DNA of 52,278 nucleotides from contig CAXBQP010000016.1 of the NCBI GenBank assembly GCA_963978095.1, forward strand, positions 1 through 52,278, given 5' to 3'. Source of the stretch: an uncultured bacterium (GTDB lineage Bacteria; Gemmatimonadota; Gemmatimonadetes; Gemmatimonadales; Gemmatimonadaceae). This document shows positions 11,868 through 44,142 of the stretch, in pieces. The first letter of the stretch is position 1. The number at the start of each line of letters is the position of its first letter. The notes beneath the pieces were generated by a model. It was not told the DNA's origin and ran no database searches. It worked only from the letters and a program-made list of their open reading frames with translations. The position numbers were made by a program, and so were the translations under genes.

Positions 11868-12076
11868 AACTCCTCAGCGCCCTCGGGCGCATCGTGAATG
11901 ACTCCCTCCGGTTCGGCCACGGTGGGACGGACCGGGCGGCCACTCCGCTTGAGCGCCGCACGCAGGAGGTACTCGACCTGACCGTTGAGCGAGCGCAAGT
12001 CGTCGTTCGCCCAGCGCTGGACCGCCTCCAGCACGTCGCGATCCACGCGCAACAAGAACGACTTGCGTTCGGCCAC
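11864..12076 (-). CDS. Arc-like ribbon-helix-helix DNA-binding protein
   Basis: 70 aa; beta-strand KSFLLRV then helices ...WANDDLRSLNGQVEYLLRAAL; lies directly downstream of an SPFH gene. Confidence 0.85.
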   Translation of the reverse strand: MAERKSFLLRVDRDVLEAVQRWANDDLRSLNGQVEYLLRAALKRSGRPVRPTVAEPEGVIHDAPEGAEEL

Positions 12077-12092
12077 GGTCCGGAAAACCGCC

Positions 12093-12962
12093 TTACTGGT
12101 AGATCGTGCCCGCGTTCACGATCGGCTGCGCCGAACGTTCGCTGCAGAGCACGACCAGCAGATTGCTCACCATCTGCGCCTTGCGCTCCTCATCGAGCGT
12201 CACGATCCCCTTGCTCGAGAGCATCTCCAGCGCGTTCTCCACCATCCCGACGGCGCCCTCGACGATCTTCGACCGTGCCGCGATGATCGCGCTCGCCTGC
12301 TGACGCTGCAACATGGCCTGTGCGATCTCCGGCGAATAGGCGAGATGCGAGATCCGCGCCTCGATCACCTCGACTCCGGCCTTGGCCAGCCGCTCGTGGA
12401 TCGCCTGCTGCAGCGAGTGGCTCACCTCGGCGGTATGCGTCGACAGCGCTTCTTCGTTGTCGGCATGCGAGTCGTAGGGATAGCTCTGCGCCACGGCGCG
12501 CACCGCCGACTCGGACTGCACGGCGACGTACGTCTGATAGTCATCGACTTCGAAGAGTGCTTCAGCCGTCTCGACGACTTTCCACACCACGATCGCGGCG
12601 ATCTCGATCGGGTTGGCGCGGTTGTCATTCACCTTGAGCTTCGTGGTCTCAAAGTTGCGGATGCGGAGCGAGATCCGGCGCTTGGTGAGGAACGGGTTGG
12701 CCCAGTAAAAGCCCCCGCTCTTGATCGTTCCCTTGTACGCCCCAAAGAGCACGAGCACCTTGGCGTCGCCGGGATCGACCACGAAGAGGCCGCCCATCGC
12801 GACCGCCGCGACGGCAATGACGAGCATTCCGCCCACCGAAAAGTACTGGTCTCCGGTCTTGGCACCGTTCATCACCATCGCGAGACCGCCAAGACCGGCG
12901 ACGATCTGGATGAGGACCGCGGGGAGACCTGGAACCGCCTTCAACTCAGCTTCGCGAAACAT
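12093..12962 (-). CDS. SPFH/band-7 domain membrane protein
   Basis: Two N-terminal TM helices, [64 protein letters not shown] 12962. Confidence 0.93.
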
Positions 12963-12984
12963 CGACGGAGGAACTCCATTGAGG

Positions 12985-13023
12985 TAGTATCTGAATGATA
13001 TCATATTGGAATCGCTTCGTCAA
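12985..13023 (-). promoter_or_regulatory. Extended -10 sigma70 promoter of the SPFH-RHH-hydrolase operon overlapped by a tandem operator
   Basis: Minus strand TTGACG (13023-13018)-N17-TATCAT (13000-12995) with TGn; 8-mers TAGTATCT, TGATATCA and TGGAATCG at an 11-bp period (12985, 12996, 13007). Confidence 0.7.
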
Positions 13024-13119
13024 GCACTTCCAACCTGTTGCCCGGCAACACGTTGCCGGACTCACTCCTCGCCGACCCCGCCCTCGCACTCCTGTGAGCA
13101 CCGCGCTACCATCCCACGC

Positions 13120-13923
13120 ATGCCCATTCGACTTGGCACCCAGGGCTGGAACTATTCCGCGTGGACGGGGCCCTTCTATCCGGACGGCACACGCCCCGCG
13201 GACTTTCTCAGCACCTACAGCCGCGCCTTCACCACGGTGGAGGTGGACTCCACCTTCTACGCGATTCCTGCAGCCAAGACCGTCCGGGGGTGGGCCGCCC
13301 GCGTGGGCGACGACTTCATCTTTTCCCTGAAGTTGCCCCAAGAGATCACGCACGGGCAGCGATTGCGCGACGCGGGCGAGACGAGTGCGCGCTTCTTTGA
13401 CGTCGCCCGGGAGCTCGGCGCGAAACTCGGTCCGGTCCTGATCCAGCTGGGCCCCGACTTCTCACCGGCGGAACTCCCCGCCCTCGAGGCGTATCTGCCG
13501 ACGCTCCCGCACGACATCGATTTCGCCATCGAGTTTCGGCAGGCCGCCTGGATTCGCGAGGATGTGGTGTCGCTGCTGCGCGACCACGAGGTGGCGCTGG
13601 CGCTCGTTGATGCGCGCTGGGTGCCGCGCGCTACGATGCTCGAGCTCGCCGCGAACCCCACCGGGCGGATCGCCTACCTGCGCTGGATGGGGCCGAACCG
13701 CGACATCGTGGATTACTCACGCATCCAGGTGGATCGCACGCCGGAGCTCGAGTCGTGGGCGGCCGTCATGCCGATGATCGCCTCGCGCGTGCGCACGGCG
13801 TACGGCTACGTGAACAATCATTTCGGTGGACACAGTCCCGAACATGTCCGCATGCTGCAGCGCATGCTTGGGCTTCCGACGGTGAGCCCAGGGGCGCTGA
13901 GCGATCAACTCGGATTGTTTTGA
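13120..13923 (+). CDS. DUF72 (YecE-like) protein
   Basis: IRLGTQGWNY, FYPDG, TVEVDSTFY, KLPQEITH, LGPVLIQL, AIEFR, YLRWMG, YVNNHFGGHS. Confidence 0.93.
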   Translation: MPIRLGTQGWNYSAWTGPFYPDGTRPADFLSTYSRAFTTVEVDSTFYAIPAAKTVRGWAARVGDDFIFSLKLPQEITHGQRLRDAGETSARFFDVARELGAKLGPVLIQLGPDFSPAELPALEAYLPTLPHDIDFAIEFRQAAWIREDVVSLLRDHEVALALVDARWVPRATMLELAANPTGRIAYLRWMGPNRDIVDYSRIQVDRTPELESWAAVMPMIASRVRTAYGYVNNHFGGHSPEHVRMLQRMLGLPTVSPGALSDQLGLF

Positions 13924-13931
13924 ACCGCGCG

Positions 13932-16900
13932 TTACGGCACCGTGATCGTTTGCGTCAGGATGGGAATCGAACCGGTCGGGTTTCCCTGCGAATCCGTCCA
14001 CTTGTACGAGAGCGTGTACGTGCCGGTTGGCGTTCCACTGGCGAGGCCGATGCCGGTGAATGAGGCCATCCCCGATGAGACCGCTACTGTTTTCACCGGC
14101 GTGCCATAGAACGATGCGCCGTTGTTGATGCTGATGGTGACATATCCGGTGGCACCGTTCAGGTAGTTGTTCCCAGCGTCTTGGACGTCAATCAACGGTT
14201 GGACGGTGAAATCAGCCCCGAGATTCACGCCGGACGCCTGCTGCGAGAAGATGAGCTTCGCCGCTGGCCCAGTCGCTGCAGTGATGCTCTGCGTGACGGT
14301 GTATGAGCCCGACGTGAAGGTGAGGGTGTAGCTCGTTCCCGCGGTTCCGGTGATTCCGACATTGGTGAAGTTCGCGTAACCGTTGGACGCGGCGAGCGTC
14401 GAGGTACCGACGACCGTGGCCTGGCCGTCACCCCCACTGACCGTCATCGTGACGGTCCCCTGCGACGTCAGGTTGCCATAGGTGTCCTTGACCTGAATGC
14501 TCGGCTGCGTGGTGAACGGCGAGCCGGCGGGAGCGCCACTCGCGGCGATGGAACTGGCGATCTGTGTGGTTGCGCCGGCCTTCGCCGTGTCACTGAAGGT
14601 CAGCGGGCTTCCGGTCAATCCCGTTGCCGTCGCCGTCATGGTGTTGACGCCGGCGGTCGTGCCCAGCGTCCAGGAACCGGGCGATGCGAGGCCGTTCGAG
14701 TTCGTGGTAGTGGTCAGCGTCGTGCCGGAACCGCCCCCGGAGGCGACCGCGAAGGTCACCGAGACGCCGGGGACTTTGTTGCTGTTGGCGTCGACGACCA
14801 ATACAGTGGGCACGGTGCCGACCGCGGTGCCAACCGTCGACGATTGGTTGTTCCCGGCGTAAATGCTGATTTGCGTCGCGGCGCCCGGCGTCAGCGTCAC
14901 GGTGACGGGGTTGCTGCTGTGCGTCAGAGTTGTCCCGCCGAGTTGTGCGCTGAAGGTCGCCGTGCCAGCGACCGATCCCTTGACCGTGGCGGTGTAGCTG
15001 CCATTGTTGTTGTCGGTCACCGCGCTGAGCGTCAGGCTCGGCCCGTTGGTCTGCACGATCGTCACCGTACCGCCGCTCGCCGTCAGGGCGTTGCCACTGA
15101 CGTCCTTCAACTGGACGGTCAATGTGCTGGTGGCGGTATTGTTGGCCGTGATACTGGACTGACTCGCCGTGAGCGTCGAGGTCGACACCGACGCCGTCCC
15201 CGGCGTGATGCTGAAGCTGGTACTCTGGCCAGTCGCCAAGCTCCCGCTCCGTGCAGTCAGCGTGTACGTCCCGGCCTTGTCGACATGGCACCCGCTGAAT
15301 GTCGCGACGCCGTTCACGGCCGGGATCTTGCTGGCGGCACAATACAGGGTGGCCCCACCCGGCGAGGTGAGTTCGACCGAGACGCTGTCGGTGGACGACG
15401 TGATGTTCGAGGCGGCGTCCTGGATCATGACCGCGGGCTGCCCCGACCAGTACGCCAGCGACTGCGCTGACGTGGGCTGGACGCTGAAGGCCAGCTTGTT
15501 CGGCGCACCCGCCACCACGCTGACGCTGTTGCTCGTGGCCGAACCGAGTCCGGTGCTGGTGGCGCTGAGCGTGTAGGTGCCGGCCTTGTCCACGGCGCAG
15601 CCGCTGAAGGTCGCCACGCCGTTGACGGCGACCACCGGATTCGACGTGCACGTCAGCACGGCGCCGGTTCCACCGACGAGCGCCAAGGACACGGCGTTCG
15701 TCGCGCCCGTCATGGTCGTCCCCACGCCATCCTTGACCGCGACCACGATCTGCGTCCCCCATGCGTTCAGCGACACCCCGCCGCTGGGCTGCGTCGTGAC
15801 GGCCAGGGCCCGGGCGGTGCCCTCCACCCAGTTGACCGCGGTCGGCGTCCCGCGCGGCGACGTCGTGCTGTCGCCATTCTGGCCGAGCCCGCCAGCGCCC
15901 CAGCAGTACAACGCACCGGCCGATGTCCGGGCACACGTTCCGGAACCCAGCGCGGCGATGCGCGAGAAGGTGAGGCCGCCGAGCGTCGCGGTCGGCACGC
16001 TGCGGTTCGCGGTCGTGCCGTCGCCGGCGCTCTGGTCGCCGTTATACCCCCAGCACCAGGAGCTGCCGGCCACGGTCAGGGCGCAGGCATGCGTGAGTCC
16101 CACCGACACACTCGCGAACGCTTGCGATGATGCCACGCGCGTGGGCGAGGTACGCTGCACCGTGGTGCTGCCATCGCCCAGCTGTCCCGACCCTTGCCGT
16201 CCCCAGCAATACACCTCGTTCGTGTTCGTGACGGCGCACGCATATTGCGCTCCCACGCTCACGTTCGTGTAGGTGCGACCATCGTTGATGGCGGCGGGGA
16301 AGGGACGTGTGCTGAACGGACTCGCGGGGAACGAGCCACCGGTGGTGCCGTCGCCGGTGAAGCTTCCCCAGCAATAGATGGTTCCGCTGGTCGTGATGCC
16401 GCAGGTGACATTCGTCCCCATGCTGACCGACGCGAAGGCGACACCCCCGGTATTCACGGCAGCGGGCGCCTTCTTGATCGTACCGTAGGAACCATCGCCC
16501 AACACGGACTGATCCATCGAGCCCCAGCAGAACACGCCGCCGGCGGCGGTCACGCCGCATGTGGACCGCAGCGACACCGCCAACGAGGTGAAGCTGTTGC
16601 CCCCCGCAACGGCAACGGGATTGCTCCGATCCGTGGTGCTGCCGTCACCCAACTCCCCGAAGCTGTTGGAGCCCCAGCAGTACGCAGCGCCGGCGGCGGT
16701 CAGCCCGCACATGTGGTCGGCGGATCCGCGCGCGAGCGAGGTGAAGGTGATCCCGCCGACGACGGCCGTTGGCATCGTCCGGTTCACGAGGCTGCCGTCG
16801 CCCACTTGCCCGCGCCGGTTGTCGCCCCAGCAATACGCAGCGCCGCTGGTGGTCAGCTGGCAGCGCGCGTCGCCCTGATTGCTCTGCGTCGCCACGCTGA

Positions 16901-19900
16901 GGACCGAGAAGGTGATGGGCGCGATGCTGGTGCCGACGACGGTCGCGACGATGCCCTGGGTCCCGACGCTGCCGGACGCAGGGGTGAACACCACACGCGC
17001 GATTCCGCCAGCATCGGTCGTGGCCGACACCGCAGTGATCGGTGTCCCGGACGGGCTCAACGCCACGCCGCCGCTCGACCCTGACGCCACGCTGAACTGA
17101 ACCGTCGCATTGCTTACGGGATTCCCACTCCCGTCTTTCACGATGACGCCGAGGTACCCCTGCGTCACGCTGCCCGCGACCTGCGCTTGCTGGTCGCCGA
17201 AGCTGATGGCAGAGCTCGCCGGAACCGACGCGGCGGTCGTAACCACGAGCACGGTCGGCGGCAATCCGTCCGTTTTGGCGGAGATCGCCGCGAATCCGGA
17301 GCTCCCGAGCACGAAACTCTGCGCGGTGGCGGTACCGGTACTGTCGGTCGTCGCCACGGCTCCAGTCAGCGTTCCCGTCCCCCCGGCGAGCGCGAAGGTG
17401 ACGGTCACGCCGACCACCGCCTTGCCACTCTTGTCCTTCACCACGACCTGTGGTGGCACAGTGGTGGCGGCTCCGCTCGCGGCGGTGCGTCCCGACACCC
17501 AGGCGCTCGTCGGCGTGATGGTGGTCGGCGTTCCGGTGGCGGGACCCGCTGGCCATCCGATGACCGCGACCGGCGTGCCGCGCAGGGAGACGGCGCTGCT
17601 GTCCCCCACTTGGCCGTTGGCGTTCGCGCCCCAGCAATACATGGAGCCGCTCACCACTCGCGCGCACTTGCCGCGGAAACTGGTAGCCGTCAGCTCCGTG
17701 AACACGGCACCGGTGATCTCCTGGGGCACCAACAGATTCGCGCCACTGATGTCGCCAGTACCCGCCGCACCCAGGATGTTTCCGCCCCAACAGAACACGC
17801 GCCCGTCAATCCGAAGTCCGCACGGGCTGAGATTGCCGATGATCACGTCGCGAAAGCGATCCTCGGCGAGTGCGATCGGCGTGGGGACGTTGCGCGGTTG
17901 GGTCGTGCCGTCGCCGTTGTTCCCCACCTGTCCGGAGCCCCAGCACAACAGCGCGCCGGTCGACGCGACGCCGCAGATGTTCGCGGTTCCGCCCGCGATA
18001 TGCGTGAAGGAGATTCCACCGGTGACGGCGGTGAACGTCGTGCGATCCGTGAAGGTGCCATCCCCGACGGCGCCGGCCCCGTTGTCCCCGAGGCAATACA
18101 CCGATCCCGCGGCGGTGCGGCCACAGAGGCCGGTGTCCCACAGCGCAATCTCGGCGAAGCTGAGGCCGTTGCTGTTCAGCGGCACCGGGGTGAGCTGACT
18201 CCGTTCGGCGAGCGCGGGGTATGTCAGACCGTACGGTTGCATCCATCCCCAGCAGTAGATGCTGCCCGCGGTGGTGAGGCCACAGGTGGTCAGGTTCTCC
18301 GTGACGATCTGCTTGAATGCCAGTCCCCCGAGGACCGCGGTCGGAACCGACCGTTGCGTCGTCGTACCGTCACCGAGCTGCCCCACGCGATTGTCGCCCC
18401 AACACCACGCGGCCCCCGCGGCGGTCAATGCGCAATGATGCGTGGCCTGCTGATCGGAGAGGCGCTTGAACGTGAGTCCACCGCTCACCGGAGCGGCGTA
18501 GTTGCGTTGCTGCGAGGCGGCACCGTCGCCGAGCGCGCCGAAGCTGTTCAGCCCCCAGCAGTATGCGGTGCCGTCCGTGGTGAGCGCGCACGGGGAGTTG
18601 CGCGACTGCACGGGGTTCTGCAACCCGAGGAAGGTGAATGTCGCGGCGGTCGCGCTGGTCGCGCCGGAGACACTCGCGGTGATCGTCGTCGTGGTGGTCA
18701 CACCGATGAGTGCACTGCGGTCGATCTGCGCGATGCCGGCGCTGTCCGACTTCGCGGTCACCGTCGTCGGCAAGCCGGAGAAGGTGACCGTGACCCCTGC
18801 CAGCGGTTGACCGGTTGCATTCGCGACGCGAACCGTCGGGGCGTTATAGGGGGGCCAGCCGGTCTGATTCGCAAACACCACGCTGTCGCCGCCCACCTTC
18901 GTGAGACTGGCGACCGCGGCGGTCCCGAAAGAATAGAAGAAGGTGTTGGACGTCGCGCCGCCTGCAAGCGTGATTGTGGCTCGTACGACATTCATCCCGG
19001 ACGCCGCGCCGAGCGTCCATTGCCCAGCCGTCGCTTGTCCCGCAGCGTTGGTCGTTGCAGTGGTCGTAGTGAGCGACCCGCCGCCGGAGACGACGGCGAA
19101 AGTGACGGTGACCCCGGACACGCCGCCGCCGCGTCCGTCACGGACGACGACGGAGGGCGAGAATGTCGGCGCGAGCGTCGCGCCTGCCGATCCCGTGCTG
19201 GTGAACGAGATGGGCGTTGGCACCATCGACGCCGCGCTCCCCGCGGTAGCCGTGGGGAGAACCACGCTCACCGGCGTGGTGGCGAAGGTCGCCGTGCCAT
19301 CGCCGAGCTGACCCGAGCTGTTGCGCCCCCAACAGAAGACGGCCGCGCCGCCCACGGCGAGCGCACAGGTGTGATCACCGTTGGTGTTGCCCGCCCCGCC
19401 GGCCATCAAGCGGGTCGCGGCCATCGGAATGGGGACCGGGGTGGCACGAACCTCCACGACTGCGCCATCGCCGAGTTGGCCGACGGAGTCGTAGCCCCAG
19501 CACCACACGGAGCCATCGGCTTTGAGGGCACAGGTCTTGTCGTCACCCGCCACGATCTCCGTGAACACATGTCCGCCGCTCACCGCCACCGGCGTCATGC
19601 TGCTGGTCGACGAGGTGCCGTTGCCCAACGTGCCGGCATAGCCCAGGCAGTAGGCCGAACCGGCGGCGGTCAATGCACACGCCTGCAACGTACCGACCGA
19701 GACGCGGACCACGCCGCTGGCGCCCGCGACCTTGGTGGGAATGCGCTGGATGCCGGTCACGCTCGAAAACACGGAGCCGCCGCTCGCGCCCCAGCAATAC
19801 ACGTCGCCGGTGGAAGCCGCAGCGCACGTGGTGTTCGCCCCGGCACCGATGTCGACGAAGGTGACGCCGGTCGGCATCCGCACGGCGACAGGCGTCGCGT

Positions 19901-21632
19901 ACGACGTGCCAACCGTGCTGTCGCCGATTTCGCCATATCGATTCAGTCCCCAGCAGTAGGCCGCGCCGGCGGTGCTGAGCCCGCACGTATGCATCGACCC
20001 CACCGAAAGCTTGGACCAGGTCACCGATGATTTTACGAGCACCGGCGTCAAGCGATTCACGCGGGAGCTGTCGCCGAGCTGCCCCGCCGCGTTGTACCCC
20101 CAGCAGACCCCTTGTCCGCTCGTCGTCACGCCGCAGGAATGATCACCACGGATGTTCTCGGACAACCGTGCGATTGCGAATCCGCCACCGACGGCCACCG
20201 GGACGGAGGTCCCGGTCGTGCCTCCGGAACCCAACTGCCCGCGCGCGCCGGCGCCCCAACAGAAGGCACCGGTCCCGACGGCCATGCAGCTGTGCTCGCC
20301 CACGCTCGCGTTGTCCAACAGCGTCGCCGTGAAGGTGGCACTCGCGCCGGACTCACTCTGCACGGTTACCGTTGCGCTCGAACCGCTGGACGGAGCTGTC
20401 CATTTGCTCGGCAAGGCGGTGTAGCCCAGCGAGTCGGTAACGCTCGAGACATTCGGCTGGTTGTTCGCTGAGAAAACAGGTGCGCCAGCGGGGACGGACC
20501 AGAACACACGCGCATTGCTGATCGGCGTGCCGAAGGAGTCCTTGATGCGGACCACCGGCGTCTCGGGAACGGTCCCTCCGACGATCGTGAACTGGTTGTT
20601 GCCGGCCACGCGCTCGATCCCCATCGCCTGCCCCGAGGTGCCGACGCCGACGGTGACCGCCACCGAGGCACTCTGGCCGCCGACGGCCGCCGTGATCGTC
20701 GCGCTGCCGGTCGCGACGCCCGTCACATCCCCGGTCGCCGTGACGCGTGCTTTTGTCGTGTCACTGCTGGTCCATGTCACACCACGGCACCCCGCCAGCG
20801 GTGCACCGCTCGCGCTGCGTGCGTCGACGAACACATGGCCGCCCGAGCCGACCCCGACACTGAGCCCGGCACTCGGACTGACGGCGACCGACGCGATCGG
20901 AGGCACCACGAAGGTCGACGTCGCCGTCCGCGACGGCGCCGAGAGTCCGATCGCGAATCGCGCGACCTGCTGCGCGTCGATCACGTTGATCGCGTTGTCG
21001 CCCGTGACGTCACCCGTGGATTGGAACGTGTTCAGATCAGCTACGGCCATGCCGACCGTGAAGCGTGCGATCTGCTGCGCGTCGAGGATGTTGACCAGTG
21101 AGTCGCCATTCACGTCGCCCCATTTGCCGAACGACGCCACGCACACATCAGTACCGGTCGACGACCTCGGCGTCGCCAGTACCGCGCCCTGCGCGTTGCT
21201 GGCCTCCGACACGTCCAGATGCAGCTGCGTGCCGGCCACGCTCGCCGACGCCGTGAACCACGCATACGCGAGCGTGACGGTGCCGCTCGCGCTCGACGCA
21301 CTGAACACGCTCAGGACGGCACGCCCCACCGTCGGGCTCAGGATCGTGGCACTCACGGTGCCGAAGTTGCCCGCCGTGATGGAATCGATGGTCAATCCCG
21401 CCGCGTTCCAGTTGAGCTGCGCCGCGATCGACGACACCGCGACCACACTTCCGGTGGCGCTGGTCGTTCCGGCGGTCGGCACGGTCATCAGCAGTGGGAC
21501 ACTGAACTTCATGCCGGGCGCGACTTGGATCTTCGTGGAGGTCCCGGCCGCCACCGCAATCGTCGACTGGGCGCGGCCGAGGCTCGGCAGCGTGAGACAG
21601 AGCAACGGGATCCAACGGCGGAGCAGGCGCAT
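13932..21632 (-). CDS. Giant secreted modular protein: cohesin-like + dockerin + Ig-like (Big_2/Big_1-type) + three RCC1 beta-propellers
   Basis: Signal peptide (..LGRA-Q); cohesin-like segment ~21563-21135; duplicated dockerin GDVNGDSLVNILDA / GDVTGDNAINVIDA (21122-20943); 21 C-x(8-10)-C[WL]G RCC1 blades in three groups of 7; GDNQ/GNNQ-type Ig modules. ATG 21632 preferred to 21659. Confidence 0.88.
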   Translation of the reverse strand: MRLLRRWIPLLCLTLPSLGRAQSTIAVAAGTSTKIQVAPGMKFSVPLLMTVPTAGTTSATGSVVAVSSIAAQLNWNAAGLTIDSITAGNFGTVSATILSPTVGRAVLSVFSASSASGTVTLAYAWFTASASVAGTQLHLDVSEASNAQGAVLATPRSSTGTDVCVASFGKWGDVNGDSLVNILDAQQIARFTVGMAVADLNTFQSTGDVTGDNAINVIDAQQVARFAIGLSAPSRTATSTFVVPPIASVAVSPSAGLSVGVGSGGHVFVDARSASGAPLAGCRGVTWTSSDTTKARVTATGDVTGVATGSATITAAVGGQSASVAVTVGVGTSGQAMGIERVAGNNQFTIVGGTVPETPVVRIKDSFGTPISNARVFWSVPAGAPVFSANNQPNVSSVTDSLGYTALPSKWTAPSSGSSATVTVQSESGASATFTATLLDNASVGEHSCMAVGTGAFCWGAGARGQLGSGGTTGTSVPVAVGGGFAIARLSENIRGDHSCGVTTSGQGVCWGYNAAGQLGDSSRVNRLTPVLVKSSVTWSKLSVGSMHTCGLSTAGAAYCWGLNRYGEIGDSTVGTSYATPVAVRMPTGVTFVDIGAGANTTCAAASTGDVYCWGASGGSVFSSVTGIQRIPTKVAGASGVVRVSVGTLQACALTAAGSAYCLGYAGTLGNGTSSTSSMTPVAVSGGHVFTEIVAGDDKTCALKADGSVWCWGYDSVGQLGDGAVVEVRATPVPIPMAATRLMAGGAGNTNGDHTCALAVGGAAVFCWGRNSSGQLGDGTATFATTPVSVVLPTATAGSAASMVPTPISFTSTGSAGATLAPTFSPSVVVRDGRGGGVSGVTVTFAVVSGGGSLTTTTATTNAAGQATAGQWTLGAASGMNVVRATITLAGGATSNTFFYSFGTAAVASLTKVGGDSVVFANQTGWPPYNAPTVRVANATGQPLAGVTVTFSGLPTTVTAKSDSAGIAQIDRSALIGVTTTTTITASVSGATSATAATFTFLGLQNPVQSRNSPCALTTDGTAYCWGLNSFGALGDGAASQQRNYAAPVSGGLTFKRLSDQQATHHCALTAAGAAWCWGDNRVGQLGDGTTTQRSVPTAVLGGLAFKQIVTENLTTCGLTTAGSIYCWGWMQPYGLTYPALAERSQLTPVPLNSNGLSFAEIALWDTGLCGRTAAGSVYCLGDNGAGAVGDGTFTDRTTFTAVTGGISFTHIAGGTANICGVASTGALLCWGSGQVGNNGDGTTQPRNVPTPIALAEDRFRDVIIGNLSPCGLRIDGRVFCWGGNILGAAGTGDISGANLLVPQEITGAVFTELTATSFRGKCARVVSGSMYCWGANANGQVGDSSAVSLRGTPVAVIGWPAGPATGTPTTITPTSAWVSGRTAASGAATTVPPQVVVKDKSGKAVVGVTVTFALAGGTGTLTGAVATTDSTGTATAQSFVLGSSGFAAISAKTDGLPPTVLVVTTAASVPASSAISFGDQQAQVAGSVTQGYLGVIVKDGSGNPVSNATVQFSVASGSSGGVALSPSGTPITAVSATTDAGGIARVVFTPASGSVGTQGIVATVVGTSIAPITFSVLSVATQSNQGDARCQLTTSGAAYCWGDNRRGQVGDGSLVNRTMPTAVVGGITFTSLARGSADHMCGLTAAGAAYCWGSNSFGELGDGSTTDRSNPVAVAGGNSFTSLAVSLRSTCGVTAAGGVFCWGSMDQSVLGDGSYGTIKKAPAAVNTGGVAFASVSMGTNVTCGITTSGTIYCWGSFTGDGTTGGSFPASPFSTRPFPAAINDGRTYTNVSVGAQYACAVTNTNEVYCWGRQGSGQLGDGSTTVQRTSPTRVASSQAFASVSVGLTHACALTVAGSSWCWGYNGDQSAGDGTTANRSVPTATLGGLTFSRIAALGSGTCARTSAGALYCWGAGGLGQNGDSTTSPRGTPTAVNWVEGTARALAVTTQPSGGVSLNAWGTQIVVAVKDGVGTTMTGATNAVSLALVGGTGAVLTCTSNPVVAVNGVATFSGCAVDKAGTYTLSATSTGLGSATSNSVSVVAGAPNKLAFSVQPTSAQSLAYWSGQPAVMIQDAASNITSSTDSVSVELTSPGGATLYCAASKIPAVNGVATFSGCHVDKAGTYTLTARSGSLATGQSTSFSITPGTASVSTSTLTASQSSITANNTATSTLTVQLKDVSGNALTASGGTVTIVQTNGPSLTLSAVTDNNNGSYTATVKGSVAGTATFSAQLGGTTLTHSSNPVTVTLTPGAATQISIYAGNNQSSTVGTAVGTVPTVLVVDANSNKVPGVSVTFAVASGGGSGTTLTTTTNSNGLASPGSWTLGTTAGVNTMTATATGLTGSPLTFSDTAKAGATTQIASSIAASGAPAGSPFTTQPSIQVKDTYGNLTSQGTVTMTVSGGDGQATVVGTSTLAASNGYANFTNVGITGTAGTSYTLTFTSGSYTVTQSITAATGPAAKLIFSQQASGVNLGADFTVQPLIDVQDAGNNYLNGATGYVTISINNGASFYGTPVKTVAVSSGMASFTGIGLASGTPTGTYTLSYKWTDSQGNPTGSIPILTQTITVP

Positions 21633-21693
21633 GCAATGTGACCAGAGCATAGGGAGCATCAGCGATCGCGGACGAACGGCGCAACGCGCCGGA

Positions 21694-22215
21694 TCAGGGC
21701 TTTCGTGGTGTGGCAGGTGCAGGCGGAGGAGCAGACGATTCCGTGTCGATCAGCGTCGTACCTTCGAGCGCGGTCGCGGCGAGTCGATGTCCGTCGAGGT
21801 CGCCCGCGACCTCGAGCACGCCGGAGATCCGCGCGTTCTCGAGCGGGCCCCGCGTGTGCGCGACGAGCCGCACCGCATCGGCCCCCAGGAATCCGGAGGT
21901 CGTGAACCCGGCGAACCGGAGGGTGCCGGCACTCACGCGCTGGGCGTTCACGAACCGGGAGCCGTCACCCGGCGCCGTGGCACTGTCCACCACGAGCACC
22001 GATGGGTCGAAGGTGAGGGTGCCTTGATATGCGCCCATGCGTACGTCACGTGCCTCGACCCGGAGCATCAGCACCACCCGGTTCCCGGGCGGCGACACGC
22101 GAACCAGCCGGAGACGAACATGCGCGGTGCCCCGCGCGTCCGCGGGTGCGACGTGCGCGCCCGCGCCCGCGCTCGCCGGCACTGCGGTCACGAGTGCGAG
22201 GGCCAGACGCCACAC
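21694..22215 (-). CDS. Small secreted single cohesin-like domain protein
   Basis: Signal peptide; MGAYQGTLTFDPSVLVVDS...FVNA...GTLRFAGFTT; clear paralogue of 22216..22767. Confidence 0.7.
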   Translation of the reverse strand: MWRLALALVTAVPASAGAGAHVAPADARGTAHVRLRLVRVSPPGNRVVLMLRVEARDVRMGAYQGTLTFDPSVLVVDSATAPGDGSRFVNAQRVSAGTLRFAGFTTSGFLGADAVRLVAHTRGPLENARISGVLEVAGDLDGHRLAATALEGTTLIDTESSAPPPAPATPRKP

Positions 22216-22767
22216 TCAGCGCGCGACCGCGAGGCCGCTGTACAAGTCGAGCACGGCATTGCTCGCCTTCAGCGCCGACGCCCGGATCGACGATCCCGTG
22301 GTCTCACCGGCGACATCCAGTTTGCCGACGATGTTCACCGGCACCTTCCCGGGCTTGAACACGCCGACCAGGCGGAACGCCTCCGTGGTCGAGAACTTCT
22401 CCGTGGCGAAGCCGGCGAAGCGCACGGTGCCGGTGGCGGCATCCGCGGCATTCACCACGCGGAACTCGCCACTCGTACCCGTCGGCGTCGGGACCTGGAC
22501 CACGGACATCGCGTTCGGATCGAAGGTCAACACCCCCTGATACGAGGCGACCGGAACACCGTTGCCCACGATGTTCACGACGAAGATCGCGCTGTCGCCG
22601 CCGGCTCGGGTGTCCTGCTCCACCATCACCTGCACATTCCCGTGGCCGACGAGCGTCACCAGATCCGTCTTGGGGGCGGTCGGGTGCTTCTCGGCGCAAG
22701 CCGTGACGACGGCGACCGCGGCAATCGCGATCCCGGAGAGACCCAGCATGGTCGAACGCAACTTCAT
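22216..22767 (-). CDS. Lipoprotein with a single cohesin-like domain
   Basis: Lipobox VTAC; VASYQGVLTFDPNAMSVVQ...VVNA...GTVRFAGFAT, resembling the cohesin S-x-Q-x-x-L-x-F/Y-D-P and G-x-I/V-x-F pattern. Confidence 0.75.
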   Translation of the reverse strand: MKLRSTMLGLSGIAIAAVAVVTACAEKHPTAPKTDLVTLVGHGNVQVMVEQDTRAGGDSAIFVVNIVGNGVPVASYQGVLTFDPNAMSVVQVPTPTGTSGEFRVVNAADAATGTVRFAGFATEKFSTTEAFRLVGVFKPGKVPVNIVGKLDVAGETTGSSIRASALKASNAVLDLYSGLAVAR

Positions 22768-22796
22768 GACGACTACCTCTGAGGAAGTTCGGTGCG

Positions 22797-25238
22797 CTAC
22801 GGCGTGATGAGGACGGTGAGCGGACGGACCAGCAGCGGGACGGTCACCGCGTTTTCGTTGCCGGCGGCCGTGACCACGAGCCCCACGGTCGCGGAGGTGT
22901 TCGCGGTGCCACTCTTCGGTCGCAAGGTGAGGGTGTACAGCGTGGTCGTCGCCGTGGCGGGCGTCGGCGAGAACACACCGACGGTCACCTTTCCACTCGA
23001 CGTTGCACTCTGGTTGTCGAACACCGAGCCGAAGCTGCCCGCCGTGCCCGACACGAAGGTGAACTTGGTGCTGTCGTAGGTGATGTCGAAACTGGCGGAC
23101 GCGAGCGTCGCGCCCTGCGGGTACGTGAGGTCGAGCGTCACCGGGATCACGAGGTTCCCGCCGACGGCAACCGTCGCCGCCGCCACACTGGGCTCACCGC
23201 CCGCGTTCAGCGTCAAACCGCGTGCCCGGGCCGCCGCTGAGAAGGTCGCCGGCGCCGAGACTCCGGCACAACTCGCGGTCAGCGTCTGCGACCCCACCGT
23301 GCTGCCGAGGGTCCACGAGGTGCTGAAGGTCGCGGTCGCGCCCGTCACGCCCGACGCGGTGCCGACGATCCCGCCACCGCTGGCCGAGACGCTCACCGCG
23401 ACACCACTGATCGGATTCCCACTGGCGTCCGCGACTTGGACCACCGGAGCGATCGGCAGCTGTGCCCCCACGAAGTAGCTCTGCGCCGGCGCGCTCAGAG
23501 CGGTGCAGATCGCCGGTACGCCAACGGCGATCGCGAACGCCGTGCTCGTCACGGGACTCACCCCGGACCCGGAGGCGGTCACTTGATACCCGCTGCCCGC
23601 CTTCGTGAGCCGCACGGCGCTGAAGGTGGCCACGCCGCTCACCGGAGTCGCGGTCACGGTTCCGCTCAGCGACACCGACGTCGCGGCGCCCGCGAGCGTC
23701 AGGGAGACCGGCGAGTTGAACGTGGTCGCGACGTTGCCGTAGCTGTCGAGGGCGTTCACCACGAACGTCGGAATCGCGGCATCGGCCGTGCCGTTGCCGG
23801 GCTGCGTGCCGAACTGCAGCGTCGACGCCGAGGCGGACGCCACGGCGAAGGTGGTGGTCATCCCGCTCGTCAGGCCGGTAGCGCTCGCGAGCAGTGCGTA
23901 CCCTGTCCCCGCCTTGGTGACCTGGAGTCCGCCGAAGGTCACGACTCCGGCGTTCGCGGAGGCGGTCTTCGTCCCGATCAGCGGCGTCGAAGTGACCAAT
24001 CCGAACGAGCTCCCGACCACGGCGCCAAGGTCGACCGTCACGCTTCCCGTGAACGATGTCGCAGTGTTGCCAAAGGCATCCCGCGCCGTGATCTGCACGT
24101 TGCCCAGCGATTGGCCGGCGGTGATCGCCGCAGGCGGATTGGTGGTTGCCGCCAGCGCTACGGCTGGTCCCGGTGTGGCCGTCGCCTTGAACGTGACGGG
24201 AGAACCGCTCAGGCCGGTCACGGCAAACGTCGCGGTCTTCGCCCCCGCCGTGCCGTCCAGCGTCCAGGTCGCACTGACCTGTCCGTTCGCATCGGTGGTC
24301 GACTGCGACACCTTGGCGGCCGTCCCCGACCCCAACGTGATCGTCACCGGCGTCCCGGCGAGCGGCAATGCATCCGTGCCGAGCACGCGCACCACCAGCG
24401 GGTTGGCCAACGGCTGTCCGACGACTCCCGATTGGTTGTCGCCAGAGACGGCCGCGATCGAAGCCGCCGCGGCATTCACGGTCAGCAGCACCGTGTCCTT
24501 CGGCCCGGTGAGCAACTCGGCGACGATCCGCGCGGTGCCGCGTTTGTTCGCCGCCCCGGCACCGGTGCCGGCGTTGGTGATCGACGCGACTGCCGTATCG
24601 AGAGAACTCCACTTGATCGGCGTGTTCGCCACGACCGTGCCGCTCGCGTCCAACGCGCTGGCTTGCCACGTGAAACTCTGCCCGATCAACAACTGCTGCG
24701 TGCGAGGGGTGATCACCACGGACTTGGCGGTCGAGCCGGTCCCGGTGTAGGTCACCGTCACCGTCACTTGTGCGGGCGTCGAGCTGCCGCCGCTCGATCC
24801 GCTCGCGCTGGCGGCGGTCGCCACGATCGGCGCCGCGCCGCGGAACACCGTATCACCCGCAGGACTGACGTATTTCAAGTTCATGTTCAACGACTCGCCC
24901 GCCGCCGGCGCCGTCGGCGAGAGCGGAACATCCATGCTCACCGTCACCGAGTCCTTCCCATCCGGGAACGCGACCATCGTATCGAGTGCGATCGTGCTGT
25001 CCGCCCGATACAACACCACGCGGACCTTGCTCACGGGGACCAACTGGCTCGTGCCCGGCGTGTTGTCGCGCAGCGCCTGCGGGAACTGGGTCAGGAAACT
25101 GATGCCACGTGCCATGATCCGAAGACCGCGGCTCGGCGCGGTCACCTCGCGCGCGCAGCTCACGGCCCCAACAAGCAGAACAGACGCGAGTAGCGCAGAT
25201 CGACGCAGATACCGACTGACGGGCACGGGCAGGCGCAT
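22797..25238 (-). CDS. Lipoprotein with an Ig-like domain stalk and a C-terminal cohesin-like domain
   Basis: Lipobox VSC; Big_2-like IKWSSLDTAVASI, SGDNQSGVVG Big_1-like and GVATF..KAG.GY Ig modules; C-terminal LASASFDITYDSTKFTFVSGTAGSFG...GKVTVGVFS (~23219-22800). ATG 25238. Confidence 0.82.
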   Translation of the reverse strand: MRLPVPVSRYLRRSALLASVLLVGAVSCAREVTAPSRGLRIMARGISFLTQFPQALRDNTPGTSQLVPVSKVRVVLYRADSTIALDTMVAFPDGKDSVTVSMDVPLSPTAPAAGESLNMNLKYVSPAGDTVFRGAAPIVATAASASGSSGGSSTPAQVTVTVTYTGTGSTAKSVVITPRTQQLLIGQSFTWQASALDASGTVVANTPIKWSSLDTAVASITNAGTGAGAANKRGTARIVAELLTGPKDTVLLTVNAAAASIAAVSGDNQSGVVGQPLANPLVVRVLGTDALPLAGTPVTITLGSGTAAKVSQSTTDANGQVSATWTLDGTAGAKTATFAVTGLSGSPVTFKATATPGPAVALAATTNPPAAITAGQSLGNVQITARDAFGNTATSFTGSVTVDLGAVVGSSFGLVTSTPLIGTKTASANAGVVTFGGLQVTKAGTGYALLASATGLTSGMTTTFAVASASASTLQFGTQPGNGTADAAIPTFVVNALDSYGNVATTFNSPVSLTLAGAATSVSLSGTVTATPVSGVATFSAVRLTKAGSGYQVTASGSGVSPVTSTAFAIAVGVPAICTALSAPAQSYFVGAQLPIAPVVQVADASGNPISGVAVSVSASGGGIVGTASGVTGATATFSTSWTLGSTVGSQTLTASCAGVSAPATFSAAARARGLTLNAGGEPSVAAATVAVGGNLVIPVTLDLTYPQGATLASASFDITYDSTKFTFVSGTAGSFGSVFDNQSATSSGKVTVGVFSPTPATATTTLYTLTLRPKSGTANTSATVGLVVTAAGNENAVTVPLLVRPLTVLITP

Positions 25239-25469
25239 CCGGGAAGACCTTGGACTGGGACGAGGCGCCGCGATATCTATCCCGCGGCGTTGATAGGCTG
25301 GCGTGGAAAACTTACAACTATAAAGGCACACGTGACAAGACGGCCGCGACGTGTCCCAGCGCCCCGCGCCTCCTAAGCCGCGGGGATGGCGCTCTACCGA
25401 CGGGTGAACAATACTTCCCGAACCAGCTCGGCGCGGTGCGCGCCGTCACATTTCCCGCCCAACGGCTCC

Positions 25470-26216
25470 ATGCCAAAGCGCCTCAAACTGATCCTCACGC
25501 TCGCGATTCCGCTCGCGTGCGCTTCGGTTTTCATTCGCCTTGGTGTGTGGCAGCTCTCCCGCCTCGCCGAACGACGTGCGTTCAATGCGACGCTCGCCGC
25601 GCGAACCGTCGCGCAACCAATTGATATTCAAGAACTTACGCGTGATACTGCCCTCGGCCACTATCGGCGGGTGACCGCGTCGGGGCGGTTCGACTATGAC
25701 CATCAAATCGTCTACGCGGGACGCTCCCGGAACGGCTCCCCCGGGGTGTATCTGATCACCCCCCTCCGCATGGCGGGAACCGATACCGTCGTCATGGTCA
25801 ACCGAGGGTGGGTCTATTCCCCGGATGCCGCGACGGTCGACGAATCCCGCTGGCGCGAAGCCGACTCGGCCGCGGTGGCCGGTTATACCGAAACCTTCGT
25901 CACGGCGGATCCGCGGGTCAATCCCGCCGCCCCCCGCCGGCTTCGGACACTCGATCAGGGCACCATCGCGCGACTCGTTCCGGCGCCAATCGCTCCGTAT
26001 GTCATTGTCCGGAACGACACGTCCATCACGGTGGCAGCGCCCAAATCCGCCACATCACCGCCGGCCCCGGTGGATTCCACGCCGGCACGGCTCGTACTGC
26101 CCCCGCTCGACGAAGGCCCGCATCAATCCTATGCGTTCCAGTGGTTCGCCTTCGCGACCATCGCGGTCGTCGGGGGTGTGATGCTCACCCGTCACGCTCT
26201 CCAGCGTCCGAGCTGA
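25470..26216 (+). CDS. SURF1 family protein (heme-copper oxidase assembly)
   Basis: FIRLGVWQLSRLAER, YRRVTASGRF, GVYLITPL, VMVNRGWV, HQSYAFQWFAFA. Confidence 0.93.
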   Translation: MPKRLKLILTLAIPLACASVFIRLGVWQLSRLAERRAFNATLAARTVAQPIDIQELTRDTALGHYRRVTASGRFDYDHQIVYAGRSRNGSPGVYLITPLRMAGTDTVVMVNRGWVYSPDAATVDESRWREADSAAVAGYTETFVTADPRVNPAAPRRLRTLDQGTIARLVPAPIAPYVIVRNDTSITVAAPKSATSPPAPVDSTPARLVLPPLDEGPHQSYAFQWFAFATIAVVGGVMLTRHALQRPS

Positions 26217-26226
26217 CGTCCTCGGC

Positions 26227-27162
26227 TCAGGCCACCCGCTCGCGGCGATACTGCAACAGCACGACGGCCGCCACGATCATCACGCCCCCCACGAGCACGC
26301 TCACGGTGATGGGCTGCCCGAGGACCAGCGCCCCGAGGATCGCGGTGAGGAACGGTTCCACGGTCGAGACGATCGCCGTGCGCACGGGGCCGAGCCGCAT
26401 CAGGCCTTTCAGGAAGAACACGCTCGGCAAGACCGTGCTGAAGAGCGTGAGGGCCAGGATCGCGCCCCACGCCGTCGCGCTGAGCGAGACCGTGAACGAG
26501 CGATCTCCGACCGCGAGCATCAGGAAGCACAGGGCGGACCCGATCTTCGCGTAGGCACTCGTCACCGCGATCGGGTGCGACTTCTGCATCCACTGCATCA
26601 GCGGGATGTACATCCCGTACACCGCTGCGGCGCCGAGGGCGAGTACGATGCCGCGCGCGCTGGTGCTCCCCGCGACCGGCGAGAGGTCCAGCGTGCCGCC
26701 ATTTGCCAGCTGGCAGACGATCACGATGATCCCGCCGAACGAGAGCGACAACGCCACCACGCGCCGGATGCTCAGCGCCTCCGCACCGCGCAGGGCCTGA
26801 ACGAGCGTGACCCAGGCGGGATAGGTGTAGAAGAGGAATCCGAGGGTCGCGGCCGTGATGTACTGCAGGCTCGAGAGCGCGAGCCCCACGAGCAACGCTT
26901 GGCCGCCACCGCCGAGTGCGAGGAAGCGCAGTGACTCCTTCCACGCCATCTTGGGATACCGATGTGCGCCGACCCAGCCCACCATCACCACCGCCCCGAG
27001 CGTGTAGCGCCAGGTGAGGACGGTGAAGAGCGAGACCTGCTCGCCGGTCGCGAGACTGGTCAGGGTGCTCACCGCGGCGAAGCCCAGGGCGGCGAGCAGG
27101 GTCCATCCGGTGCCCGTGCCGAGCGCTGCGGGGGCGGCCGCGGGCGAGCGCGGATCGCTCAC
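26227..27162 (-). CDS. DMT/EamA-family transporter
   Basis: About 10 TM helices in two repeats; LFYTYPAWV, GPVRTAIVSTVEP. Confidence 0.9.
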   Translation of the reverse strand: MSDPRSPAAAPAALGTGTGWTLLAALGFAAVSTLTSLATGEQVSLFTVLTWRYTLGAVVMVGWVGAHRYPKMAWKESLRFLALGGGGQALLVGLALSSLQYITAATLGFLFYTYPAWVTLVQALRGAEALSIRRVVALSLSFGGIIVIVCQLANGGTLDLSPVAGSTSARGIVLALGAAAVYGMYIPLMQWMQKSHPIAVTSAYAKIGSALCFLMLAVGDRSFTVSLSATAWGAILALTLFSTVLPSVFFLKGLMRLGPVRTAIVSTVEPFLTAILGALVLGQPITVSVLVGGVMIVAAVVLLQYRRERVA

Positions 27163-27166
27163 CGGG

Positions 27167-28591
27167 TCAGCCCATGTACTTGCCGAGGACGAGCAGCGCC
27201 ACGGTGAAGTAGATGATCAATCCGGTGACGTCGACAAGGGTCGCCACGAATGGCGCTGAAGAGCTTGCCGGATCGAAGCCCAAGCGGCGGAGCAGGAAGG
27301 GAAGCATCGATCCGGTGAGCGAGCCGAAGGTCACGATGCCGGTGAGCGCGATGAAGGTGTTGAGCGCCACGAGCAGATACGGCGCCTTGGTGCCGTAGTC
27401 GTAGAAGCCGGCCTTCTGCCAGACGATCACGCGAATGCAGCCGATGATCCCCAGGATCGCGCCGAGCGTCATCCCCGTGGGGAGTTCGCGCAACGCCACG
27501 CGCCACCAGTCGCGGAGTTCGACTTCCTTGAGCGCCATGGCGCGCGTGATGAGCGATGTCGCCTGGGAGCCGGAGTTGCCGCCGCTGCTCATCACGAGCG
27601 GCACGAAGAGCATGAGCACCGGCAGCTTCTGCAGTTCCTGGTCGAAGTACTGCAGCGCGCTGGTGGTGAACATTTCGCTGATCATCAGGATGGAGAGCCA
27701 TCCCGCCCGCTTCTTGAGCATGCCGACGATCCCCATCGACATGTACGGCTCGTCGAGGGCCTCCATACCGCCCATCTTCTGGACGTCCTCGGTCTGCTCC
27801 TCCTGGATGGCGTCGATGACGTCGTCGAAGGTGACCACGCCCAGTACCCGTTCGGAGTCATCCACCACCGGCACGGCGACCAAGTCGTACTCCGAGATCA
27901 CGCGCGCGACTTCTTCGCGGTCGGACGTCGGATGCACGTGGCGTACTTCCGACCAGGCCACATCGCTGACCCGCGCGCCCTCAGGCGCGGCGAGCAACTC
28001 GCGCAGGGAGAGCACCCCGCGGAGGATCCCCCTGTCGTCCACCGCATACACGACGTTCATCGCTTCGCGTCGGCCGCCGCGCGCGATCTCGCGCACGCGT
28101 CGCAATGCGACCTCCACGGTGTCCGTTTCGGGGACCGAGACGAACTCGGTGGTCATCAGTCCGCCGGCACTGTCCGTCGCATACTCGAGCAACTGCTCGG
28201 TGACGCGCCGGTCCGCCTCCGGAAGCGCCTCGACGATGTCCTCGGCGTGCTCCTCGTCGATCTCGTCGAGCGTGTCGACGCGATCGTCCGGCGTCATCTG
28301 CGCGATGAGCTTGGCCGCCTGCTCGGGGCTCATCTCCTCGAGGAGTTCGACCCGCAGCTCCTCGTTCACATACTCGAGGACCGCCGCCGCCCGGTCGGCG
28401 GGGAGCGTGGCGAAGAACGCCGGCAGTTGCGAGCGCGGAATCTTCTCGACGACGTCGGCGAGATCCGCGGGGTGGACTTCCTCGGTTTCGGCCGCGATGG
28501 CGCCGGGCTCGGTCTCGAGAAGATCGAGCAGGTCCGGCGCGAGGAGGGACGCGATTGACGGCTCGTCGCCGTGCGTCTGTCTGGCTTTCAT
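27167..28591 (-). CDS. mgtE: Magnesium transporter MgtE
   Basis: HPADLAD N-domain, tandem CBS (SAGGLMTTEF, VPVVDD), KRAGWL, SSGGNSGSQ, DPASSSAPFVATLVDVTG; SD AGGAGG. Confidence 0.96.
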   Translation of the reverse strand: MKARQTHGDEPSIASLLAPDLLDLLETEPGAIAAETEEVHPADLADVVEKIPRSQLPAFFATLPADRAAAVLEYVNEELRVELLEEMSPEQAAKLIAQMTPDDRVDTLDEIDEEHAEDIVEALPEADRRVTEQLLEYATDSAGGLMTTEFVSVPETDTVEVALRRVREIARGGRREAMNVVYAVDDRGILRGVLSLRELLAAPEGARVSDVAWSEVRHVHPTSDREEVARVISEYDLVAVPVVDDSERVLGVVTFDDVIDAIQEEQTEDVQKMGGMEALDEPYMSMGIVGMLKKRAGWLSILMISEMFTTSALQYFDQELQKLPVLMLFVPLVMSSGGNSGSQATSLITRAMALKEVELRDWWRVALRELPTGMTLGAILGIIGCIRVIVWQKAGFYDYGTKAPYLLVALNTFIALTGIVTFGSLTGSMLPFLLRRLGFDPASSSAPFVATLVDVTGLIIYFTVALLVLGKYMG

Positions 28592-43860: not shown

Positions 43861-44142
43861 GACGAAGTCCTGTGTAAGAGAAGCGAGCAATGGCGGCGCG
43901 TTCGGGCGCGACGCGTGATCAGGCGAGGGTCACGGCGTGGGGCGAGTCGCCGTGGATGGTCGGGGAACGCTCCCTGTCGCGTCCACGGATGTTGCGCTTA
44001 CCGCCGTCCGAATACAAACTGGTGCATCGGTGTGGACGAGATTTCCGGTACTCTGACTGAGAAAACTTCTGAAATCTCAAACAGTATTGCAATCAACGCC
44101 CAGCAAGTTTTTCGTGAACTGTGTCGCTTAAAGTCATTCCTT

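Follow-up and report, generated by a model that had tools for sequence, protein, structure and literature searches.

The 52,278-nucleotide (nt) stretch of DNA analysed here (hereafter the window; contig CAXBQP010000016.1, designated C16, of assembly GCA_963978095.1, a 2.98-Mb and 91% complete genome of an uncultured member of the Gemmatimonadaceae) carries on its reverse strand a run of four genes, A to D, that encode a candidate cohesin-dockerin system. Gene A (22797-25238; 813 amino acids, aa) specifies a predicted lipoprotein (Cys28) with a conserved N-terminal domain, an immunoglobulin (Ig)-like stalk and a C-terminal cohesin, while gene B (22216-22767; 183 aa) specifies a small predicted lipoprotein (Cys24) with one cohesin (22237-22641), for which we propose the role of membrane socket. 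Gene C (21694-22215; 173 aa, GTG start) encodes a predicted secreted, non-lipidated paralogue of B (cohesin at 21745-22125), and gene D (13932-21632; 2,566 aa) a predicted secreted cargo protein composed of a cohesin, a dockerin, an Ig domain, three RCC1 propellers and an Ig stalk. The co-orientation of the genes and their spacing (29, 0 and 61 nt), as reported in a first-pass annotation made from the sequence alone, are correct if D begins at the ATG at 21632 (an in-frame ATG at 21659 is likewise open). The stop codon of B abuts the start of C (TGA-GTG), the start of A agrees with those of its homologues in loci L017 and L019, and GC content at third codon positions amounts to 0.79-0.89 in the four reading frames. 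NCBIfam offers no name for any of the four products.

The cohesin-like domains claimed for all four proteins were recovered as cohesin folds by Pfam, profile comparisons and structural models. The cohesin of A (22800-23222; residues 673-813) is matched by Pfam Cohesin (PF00963) over residues 684-798 (E 4.9e-9, above the cut-off), and the matches of the A family profile in the PDB are cohesins in 12 out of 12 cases (2vn5, E 9.5e-7); the N-terminal domain of A has no Atlas match at or above 0.9. For the N-terminal cohesin of D (21129-21569; residues 22-168), the D22-240 model (pLDDT 91) finds cohesins as the top 20 matches of its residues 1-147 (Z 11.5-16.2, the best being 2vo8 and 6kgc at Z 16.2; root-mean-square deviation, rmsd, 1.9-2.3), while residues 148-210 of the same model match the dockerin 2ccl_B (Z 9.9, rmsd 1.5 over 62 residues); the profile of the D cohesin, in turn, matches the A cohesins (E 3.8e-24). 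B lacks a cohesin match in Pfam; its AlphaFold2 model (123 homologues, pLDDT 96), compared with 48,161 chains, retrieves cohesins as all of the top 16 matches (Z 9.9-12.3, rmsd ~3), the first non-cohesin following at Z 9.4. C, which is 35% identical to B, reaches Pfam Cohesin below the cut-off (E 0.0075), has an Atlas model that aligns with Cohesin-named clusters (TM-score ~0.6) and forms a cohesin subclade of its own (support 100/99). The nearest solved relative of the joint B/C profile is the non-cellulosomal cohesin of NagJ (E 0.003), and at E 0.001 this profile retrieves 1,765 representatives, some of them multi-repeat proteins that by eye are cohesin arrays. As cohesins outrank every other sandwich fold in the structural searches, a carbohydrate-binding module or a plain Ig domain was excluded for B and D. 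On the strength of these structural and profile matches, we conclude that the four cohesin folds and the one dockerin of the operon are real.

The dockerin of D (20943-21119) is matched by Pfam Dockerin_1 (PF00404; residues 172-225, E 9.4e-7, above the cut-off) and has the make-up of a type I-like dockerin, with two Ca-binding loop-helix repeats and Asp or Asn at positions 1, 3, 5, 9 and 12. The first-pass annotation had read the motif GDVNGDxxVNxxD twice: two repeats are indeed there, the second reading GDVTGDNAINVID and not GDVNGD. Its count of one dockerin holds for the operon and fails for the genome, where a second operon on contig C37 has a dockerin protein of its own; the dockerin-like motifs seen on contigs C65 and C66 consist of one loop each, belong to unrelated proteins and were discarded. 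Downstream of the dockerin, the RCC1 and Ig content described earlier was confirmed (Pfam matches to RCC1 and Big_1), with 21 RCC1 repeats arranged in three seven-bladed propellers between Ig-like domains (19263-20288, ~residues 449-790; 17583-18590, ~residues 1015-1350; 15843-16862, ~residues 1591-1930) and a Cys pair in each blade. The C-terminal Big_1/invasin-like Ig stalk (13935-15830) is unlike the stalk of close homologues. In agreement with the same annotation, D has no glycoside hydrolase or autotransporter domain in Pfam (E up to 0.1); it also departs from type Ve autotransporters, since its N-terminus is a cohesin-dockerin unit and only the passenger-type domains Big_1 and Invasin_D3 are matched.

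Two cysteines of D, Cys164 (21141-21143) and Cys282 (20787-20789), lie on either side of the dockerin (the pair spanning 20787-21143) and are conserved together. In a set of 70 distinct N-terminal-dockerin proteins, both flanking cysteines are present in 67 and absent from three (one of which retains the cohesin), and no protein has a single one; the first site immediately precedes the dockerin, the second falls within the following 70 residues, usually around +8, +44 or +59. An internal Cys pair is present in 20 of 22 C-terminal dockerins. We interpret these pairs as putative disulfides bracing the dockerin (Cys164-Cys282 in D), which would be consistent with folding in the periplasm and with a structural role for the D cohesin; the latter looks to be a pedestal for the dockerin rather than a socket.

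In a tree of 60 cohesin domains (the D-type sample being 17 of 47 rows, drawn at random plus the D of the window), the B/C cohesins are split from those of A and D at 100/99, with B and C in distinct subclades; we refer to the A/D group as the alpha clade and to the B/C group as the beta clade. Profile-profile comparisons are consistent with the tree (E 4e-24 for A-D, 9e-15 for B/C-A and 3e-10 for B/C-D). On the dockerin side, a set of 76 dockerins keeps the Ca ligands, with Asp at Ca positions 1 and 12 in 74-76 of the 76 rows, and has conserved, symmetric recognition positions, 10, 14 and 18 being identical between both repeats in 57, 67 and 58 of them. Such conservation and symmetry lead one to expect a receptor that is conserved too. 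We compared pairwise identity on the face formed by strands 8-3-6-5, which we take, from the roles known in cellulosomal complexes, to be the one that binds the dockerin, with identity on the opposite face (residues being assigned by in/out alternation on predicted strands, not by coordinates). In three locus classes, B/C cohesins are more alike on the binding face (47 vs 31%, n=26; 42 vs 22%, n=20; 73 vs 41%, n=6), while those of A show the reverse (31 vs 40, 29 vs 37 and 39 vs 45%), as do those of D (26% vs 36%, n=45), whose face is made up of variable small polar residues even among paralogues of one genome with nearly identical dockerins. This pattern is suggestive of a canonical dockerin-binding face conserved, among the four cohesins, only in B and C, and makes lipoprotein B the likely dockerin socket, with C as its soluble paralogue. 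Gene content agrees with such a role: eight loci (L035, L037, L040, L041, L042, L048, L050 and L055) hold a B-type gene and a gene for a cohesin-less dockerin protein with no A detected, and at L065 (629-2155) one open reading frame (ORF) of 509 aa fuses a lipoprotein signal, a B-type cohesin, a D-type cohesin and a dockerin. A predicted complex of B, the D dockerin and four Ca scored 0.20 and 0.18 (mark 0.32), which counts neither for nor against binding.

The layout of the operon recurs in relatives across Gemmatimonadota. A search with B alone matched 6 of 61 relatives (source genome included), three further genomes of the genus preserve the order A-B-C-D (a second cohesin-dockerin giant bearing a different cargo being present in two of them), A-B-D is found in another genus, and 41 of the 44 loci found by a dockerin-family search belong to Gemmatimonadota. 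A-type ORFs range from ~430 to 2,700 aa, with stalks of variable length. In 301 genomes sampled across the phylum (genome G036 being counted only in these tallies), the B/C profile was matched in 37 and the dockerin profile in 33; both were matched in 22, against 4.1 expected if the two were independent, an excess inflated by kinship and by dockerin-profile rows taken from loci that had been found through B/C. A less circular count takes the 41 Gemmatimonadota loci that a search with the dockerin alone turned up: in 20 of them, the fetched DNA includes a cohesin gene distinct from the dockerin gene (five of the dockerin-found loci duplicate DNA of the other locus set, and the sets are not summed). 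The remaining 21 are mostly from genomes in which numerous cargo genes lie scattered. Five genomes were inspected: G341 (13 dockerin matches, one B-C pair), G342 (five, one pair), G338 (seven, one B-C pair and an extra B-like gene), G339 (three, one pair and an extra B-like gene) and G340, which yielded a single, partial dockerin and nothing for cohesin.

Several variants were seen alongside these loci. Many weaker dockerin matches, without any match to a B/C-type cohesin, occur in G068 (12 matches) and in further genomes of family f10; these dockerins are probably a separate class. At L122 (5198-8958) an A-type protein is followed by a small dockerin protein (228-aa ORF) without a cohesin. 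A related class of cohesin-bearing lipoproteins occurs at L022 (2537-12099), L039, L044-L047, L051-L053 and L059; some of these proteins combine a B-type cohesin with a long C-terminal domain and a dockerin-like segment of divergent sequence. In L022 the cohesin lipoproteins come after a gene that reads as a TonB-dependent receptor.

The second operon of the source genome (contig C37; L023:3534-9471) encodes an Ig-stalk cohesin lipoprotein, a small cohesin lipoprotein, a protein with a cohesin and an Ig-like domain, and a VPS10/BNR propeller cargo that ends in a Cys-clasped C-terminal dockerin and partly resembles GH74 enzymes (E 8e-15); a SusD-like gene lies ~2.6 kb upstream. Across the family, a Pfam scan (E 1e-10) of 49 of the 67 distinct cargo segments assigned 13 to RCC1, six to VPS10/BNR, six to beta-helices, four to InlB B-repeats and four to Ig domains only, with one each for M6 peptidase, M8 peptidase (peptidases thus in 2 of 49), DUF285, CARDB, He_PIG, PKD, PPC and DUF6298, and left eight without a family. 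None of the 49 matched a Pfam glycoside hydrolase family at this threshold; one D homologue has a weak polysaccharide-lyase match at its end (E 0.002). In L028, L029 and L030, three or four cohesin-dockerin genes, mostly with beta-helix cargo, are arrayed behind A-B. Judged by domain content, the system would be a general carrier, of which the D of the window is a predicted non-catalytic example; the earlier proposal of adhesion or capture instead of degradation fits this D and needs amending for a family that includes GH74-like propellers, beta-helices and M6/M8 peptidases.

As regards export, signal peptides and lipoboxes were judged by eye and by regular expression, which gave predicted lipoboxes in A (VSC, Cys28) and B (TAC, Cys24) that are kept in homologues, and a lipobox-like Cys (regular expression) in 92 of 125 short B/C-family proteins. 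LolA is present in the source genome. Secretin searches of this genome returned two clusters, one of the type II secretion system (T2SS) kind on contig C57 and one for type IV pili on C10, neither of them linked to the operon; CsgG-like genes on C7 and C23 are likewise unlinked. The GspD model matched 287 of 301 genomes and is uninformative because pilus secretins match it too, and models for the type IX secretion system matched neither the genome nor their own controls, so that they are equally uninformative. Matches to a GspK-like model, several of them doubtful, occur in 17 of 26 carrier genomes. Two side observations belong here. D-type proteins often have Gln as their predicted first mature residue (following Ala; 21567-21569 in the window, and D homologues in L017, L019 and L020), which recalls the pyroglutamate 'Q-rule' of Bacteroidota; and on C7 a CsgG-like gene (L113:12125-14500) adjoins a 508-aa ORF that has no Pfam match and reads like an outer-membrane barrel.

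Taken together, these observations make it fairly probable, in our judgement, that the operon constitutes a lipid-anchored plug-and-socket display system in which B holds the dockerin cargo D. The first-pass annotation had lipoprotein-borne cohesins tether D through its dockerin; genomic context and face conservation speak in favour of such a tether, and the proposal needs amending in that the four cohesins are not equivalent. As we envisage it, all four proteins would be exported, A and B being lipidated and sent to the outer membrane, whereas D would fold in the periplasm, where a disulfide would staple its cohesin to the Ig domain that follows the dockerin, so that the dockerin is held out by the head like a stiff plug. 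In its Ca-loaded form, the dockerin would bind a beta-clade cohesin on its conserved face, and lipoprotein B would keep the cargo at the membrane; soluble C may bind the same dockerin as an escort (chaperone), a cap or a release factor, and A may add another lipid-anchored stalk to the assembly. The D cohesin would act like the X module of XDoc pairs and not as a socket, an analogy only, the partner here being a cohesin fold instead of an Ig-like X module. The stand-alone cohesin of Ruminococcus flavefaciens (PDB 4n2o), which reportedly has a shuttle role, offers, again by analogy only, a model for C as a free cohesin. With its three propellers, the RCC1/Ig cargo D would most likely be a ligand-binding adhesin or capture protein, other genomes plugging in other cargo.

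A number of points weigh against the plug-and-socket interpretation. For class-1 loci alone, the B/C face contrast gave a permutation P of 0.053, and the B/C rows had been picked by profile, a choice that favours conserved columns; both make the face conservation suggestive and not a proof. In L061 and L099, A stands directly before D with no B between them, which would suit A as the socket, and the frequent retention of A beside B is left unexplained by the model. Besides the partial circularity of the co-occurrence, 15 genomes match the cohesin profile only and 11 the dockerin profile only (a divergent cohesin gene lies next door in five of the six dockerin-only genomes examined). Moreover, no single export route is shared by every carrier, a GspK-like match being absent from 9 of the 26.

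Three other readings have to be set beside it. The alpha-clade cohesins might also bind dockerins, directly or through C, giving head-to-tail polymers of mixed cargo in which A or B starts the chain and every D offers a socket to the next D. The common clade of the A and D cohesins, the loci L061 and L099, an A with three cohesins (L069) and the tandem arrays of two to four cohesin-dockerin genes behind A-B (L017, L019, L028, L029 and L030) would all suit such a chain, as would the few residues between cohesin and dockerin in D, a distance that should make canonical binding in cis unlikely. The binding face of D is nevertheless variable (26% vs 36% overall in 45 rows), even among the paralogues of one genome, and many cargoes with a C-terminal dockerin have no cohesin; we regard chain formation as unlikely. 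Should it occur all the same, it would yield a polymerised surface fibre or scaffold, in which lipid-anchored stalks nucleate Ca-dependent, disulfide-stapled chains of interchangeable giants (up to 13 dispersed genes) and alpha (A, D) and beta (B, C) cohesins work together; this doubtful but consequential outcome would amount to a pilus-like assembly principle in a diderm.

We consider it quite unlikely that nothing is bound at all, i.e. that the cohesin folds are spacers or binders of glycans or surfaces, the dockerin a Ca-binding structural element and the operon a generic surface-protein island. Cohesin folds do occur in other settings (e.g. fused to secretins), the model of B is looser than that of D (Z 12 vs 16, rmsd ~3) and some genomes have cohesins without a dockerin match; yet the recognition positions of the dockerin are conserved and symmetric, B and C conserve one outward face, and B-type genes adjoin dockerin genes in either order, with cargoes that are unrelated to one another. 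Binding might, on the other hand, take place in the periplasm or at the inner face of the outer membrane, or hold the cargo until its release, as could be argued from a D without a barrel or recognised secretion signal, from an operon and neighbours that encode no transporter, and from T2SS markers that are patchy among carriers. A 2,566-aa chain of Ig domains and propellers and A stalks of up to 2,700 aa would fit poorly into the periplasm, however, and the cargo includes InlB B-repeats, He_PIG, CARDB and DUF285, which are typical domains of surface proteins; a periplasmic or transient pairing strikes us as very unlikely.

The surroundings of the operon are unexceptional: the flanks (10233-13923, with alpha/beta hydrolase, SPFH and DUF72 genes; 25386-28591, with SURF1, EamA and MgtE) hold ordinary genes, and the EamA-MgtE context upstream of the operon recurs in L017. 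Promoter and terminator scans of the operon were at chance level. Four metatranscriptome runs of one study gave short, low-depth contigs across A, B and D and also across neighbouring genes. Elsewhere in the window (40840-43890, reverse strand), a secreted Big_1/MG4 repeat protein of ~1,000 aa has paired cysteines and neither a cohesin nor a dockerin.

Cohesins and dockerins outside cellulosomes are widespread, and binding has been reported for archaeal pairs (PMC9012536). The first-pass annotation did not recognise a described system; this stands for the Gemmatimonadota lipoprotein version and fails for the general kind, which has been proposed for diderms before, namely as the hypothesised 'planctosome' of freshwater Planctomycetes (anchor, adaptor and peptidases; PMC6461901) and as a cellulosome-like complex of Ca. 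Stygibacter, Cloacimonadota (PMC8542988). Our literature search, which covered article texts, found no paper on a lipoprotein cohesin-dockerin system of Gemmatimonadota: the main text of a RefSeq-wide cellulosome survey, from which metagenome genomes were excluded, does not mention the phylum (PMC11557425), the available part of a review adds nothing on such a system (PMC12484212), and a discussion of giant dockerin-type and RCC1-type proteins is, in its available part, without mention of Gemmatimonad- (10.1101/2023.11.21.568195).

Compared with the cellulosome anchors of Clostridia and Ruminococcus (OlpA and OlpC complexes 3ul4 and 4dh2; PMC11557425), the system shares the cohesin and dockerin folds, a single cohesin with a predicted cell anchor and, as in monovalent adaptor scaffoldins, a cohesin and dockerin in one chain as well as one putative socket locus alongside many dispersed dockerin genes; it differs in being an operon of a diderm, in having a predicted lipobox instead of an SLH or sortase anchor, and in its N-terminal cohesin-dockerin head with a putative disulfide staple. 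A multi-cohesin primary scaffoldin was not found in the source genome (91% complete), where each cohesin-bearing ORF has one cohesin, and neither D nor the 49 cargoes (E 1e-10) combine a dockerin with a Pfam glycoside hydrolase, the C37 cargo being partly GH74-like. The nearest solved relatives by profile, the Clostridium perfringens pairs (NagJ/GH84C, 2jh2 and 2ozn; GH33, 2vo8) and Archaeoglobus fulgidus (2xdh), are also among the top fold matches and share a non-cellulolytic context. Those pairs are from monoderms and archaea and link glycoside hydrolases or else proteins whose role is unknown; the available parts of the sources describe for them no A-B-C operon with lipoproteins and exchangeable giant cargo.

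The planctosome and the Ca. Stygibacter complex, both genome-based proposals, resemble the present system in the diderm host, a cohesin anchor, a dockerin-cohesin adaptor and non-cellulase cargo. As given in the available parts of those papers, the two proposals have as anchor a lamin-tail protein or else a scaffoldin bearing a C-terminal domain, and as cargo peptidases or hydrolases, whereas here the predicted anchors are lipoproteins and the cargo a non-catalytic RCC1/Ig giant; no lamin-tail, HYR or peptidase domain of the planctosome kind was matched in A-D (Pfam, E up to 0.1). The candidate modules of anaerobic methanotrophic (ANME) archaea (PMC9012536) and the cohesin/dockerin adhesins proposed for syntrophic sulfate reducers (PMC10553843) are likewise non-cellulosomal and have a proposed adhesive role, with a domain content that varies among close relatives; they belong to other lineages, carry ABC substrate-binding proteins as cargo and come, in the available parts of those sources, without such an operon. 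From domain content and gene neighbourhood we consider that A-D represent a real, conserved and putatively lipoprotein-anchored cohesin-dockerin system, which would work like the anchoring layer of a cellulosome and is itself no cellulosome.

The small, expressible domains involved (~135 and ~70 aa) make the role of non-cellulosomal cohesins and dockerins directly testable, and may be a source of new and perhaps orthogonal pairs with which to build designer scaffolds able to fold in an oxidising periplasm. To our knowledge, the way in which diderms hold very large secreted proteins without a barrel anchor is poorly understood beyond a few model systems. If the interpretation is correct, lipoproteins whose cohesin serves as a socket for exchangeable dockerin cargo would solve this problem in a general way for a widespread and little-studied phylum.

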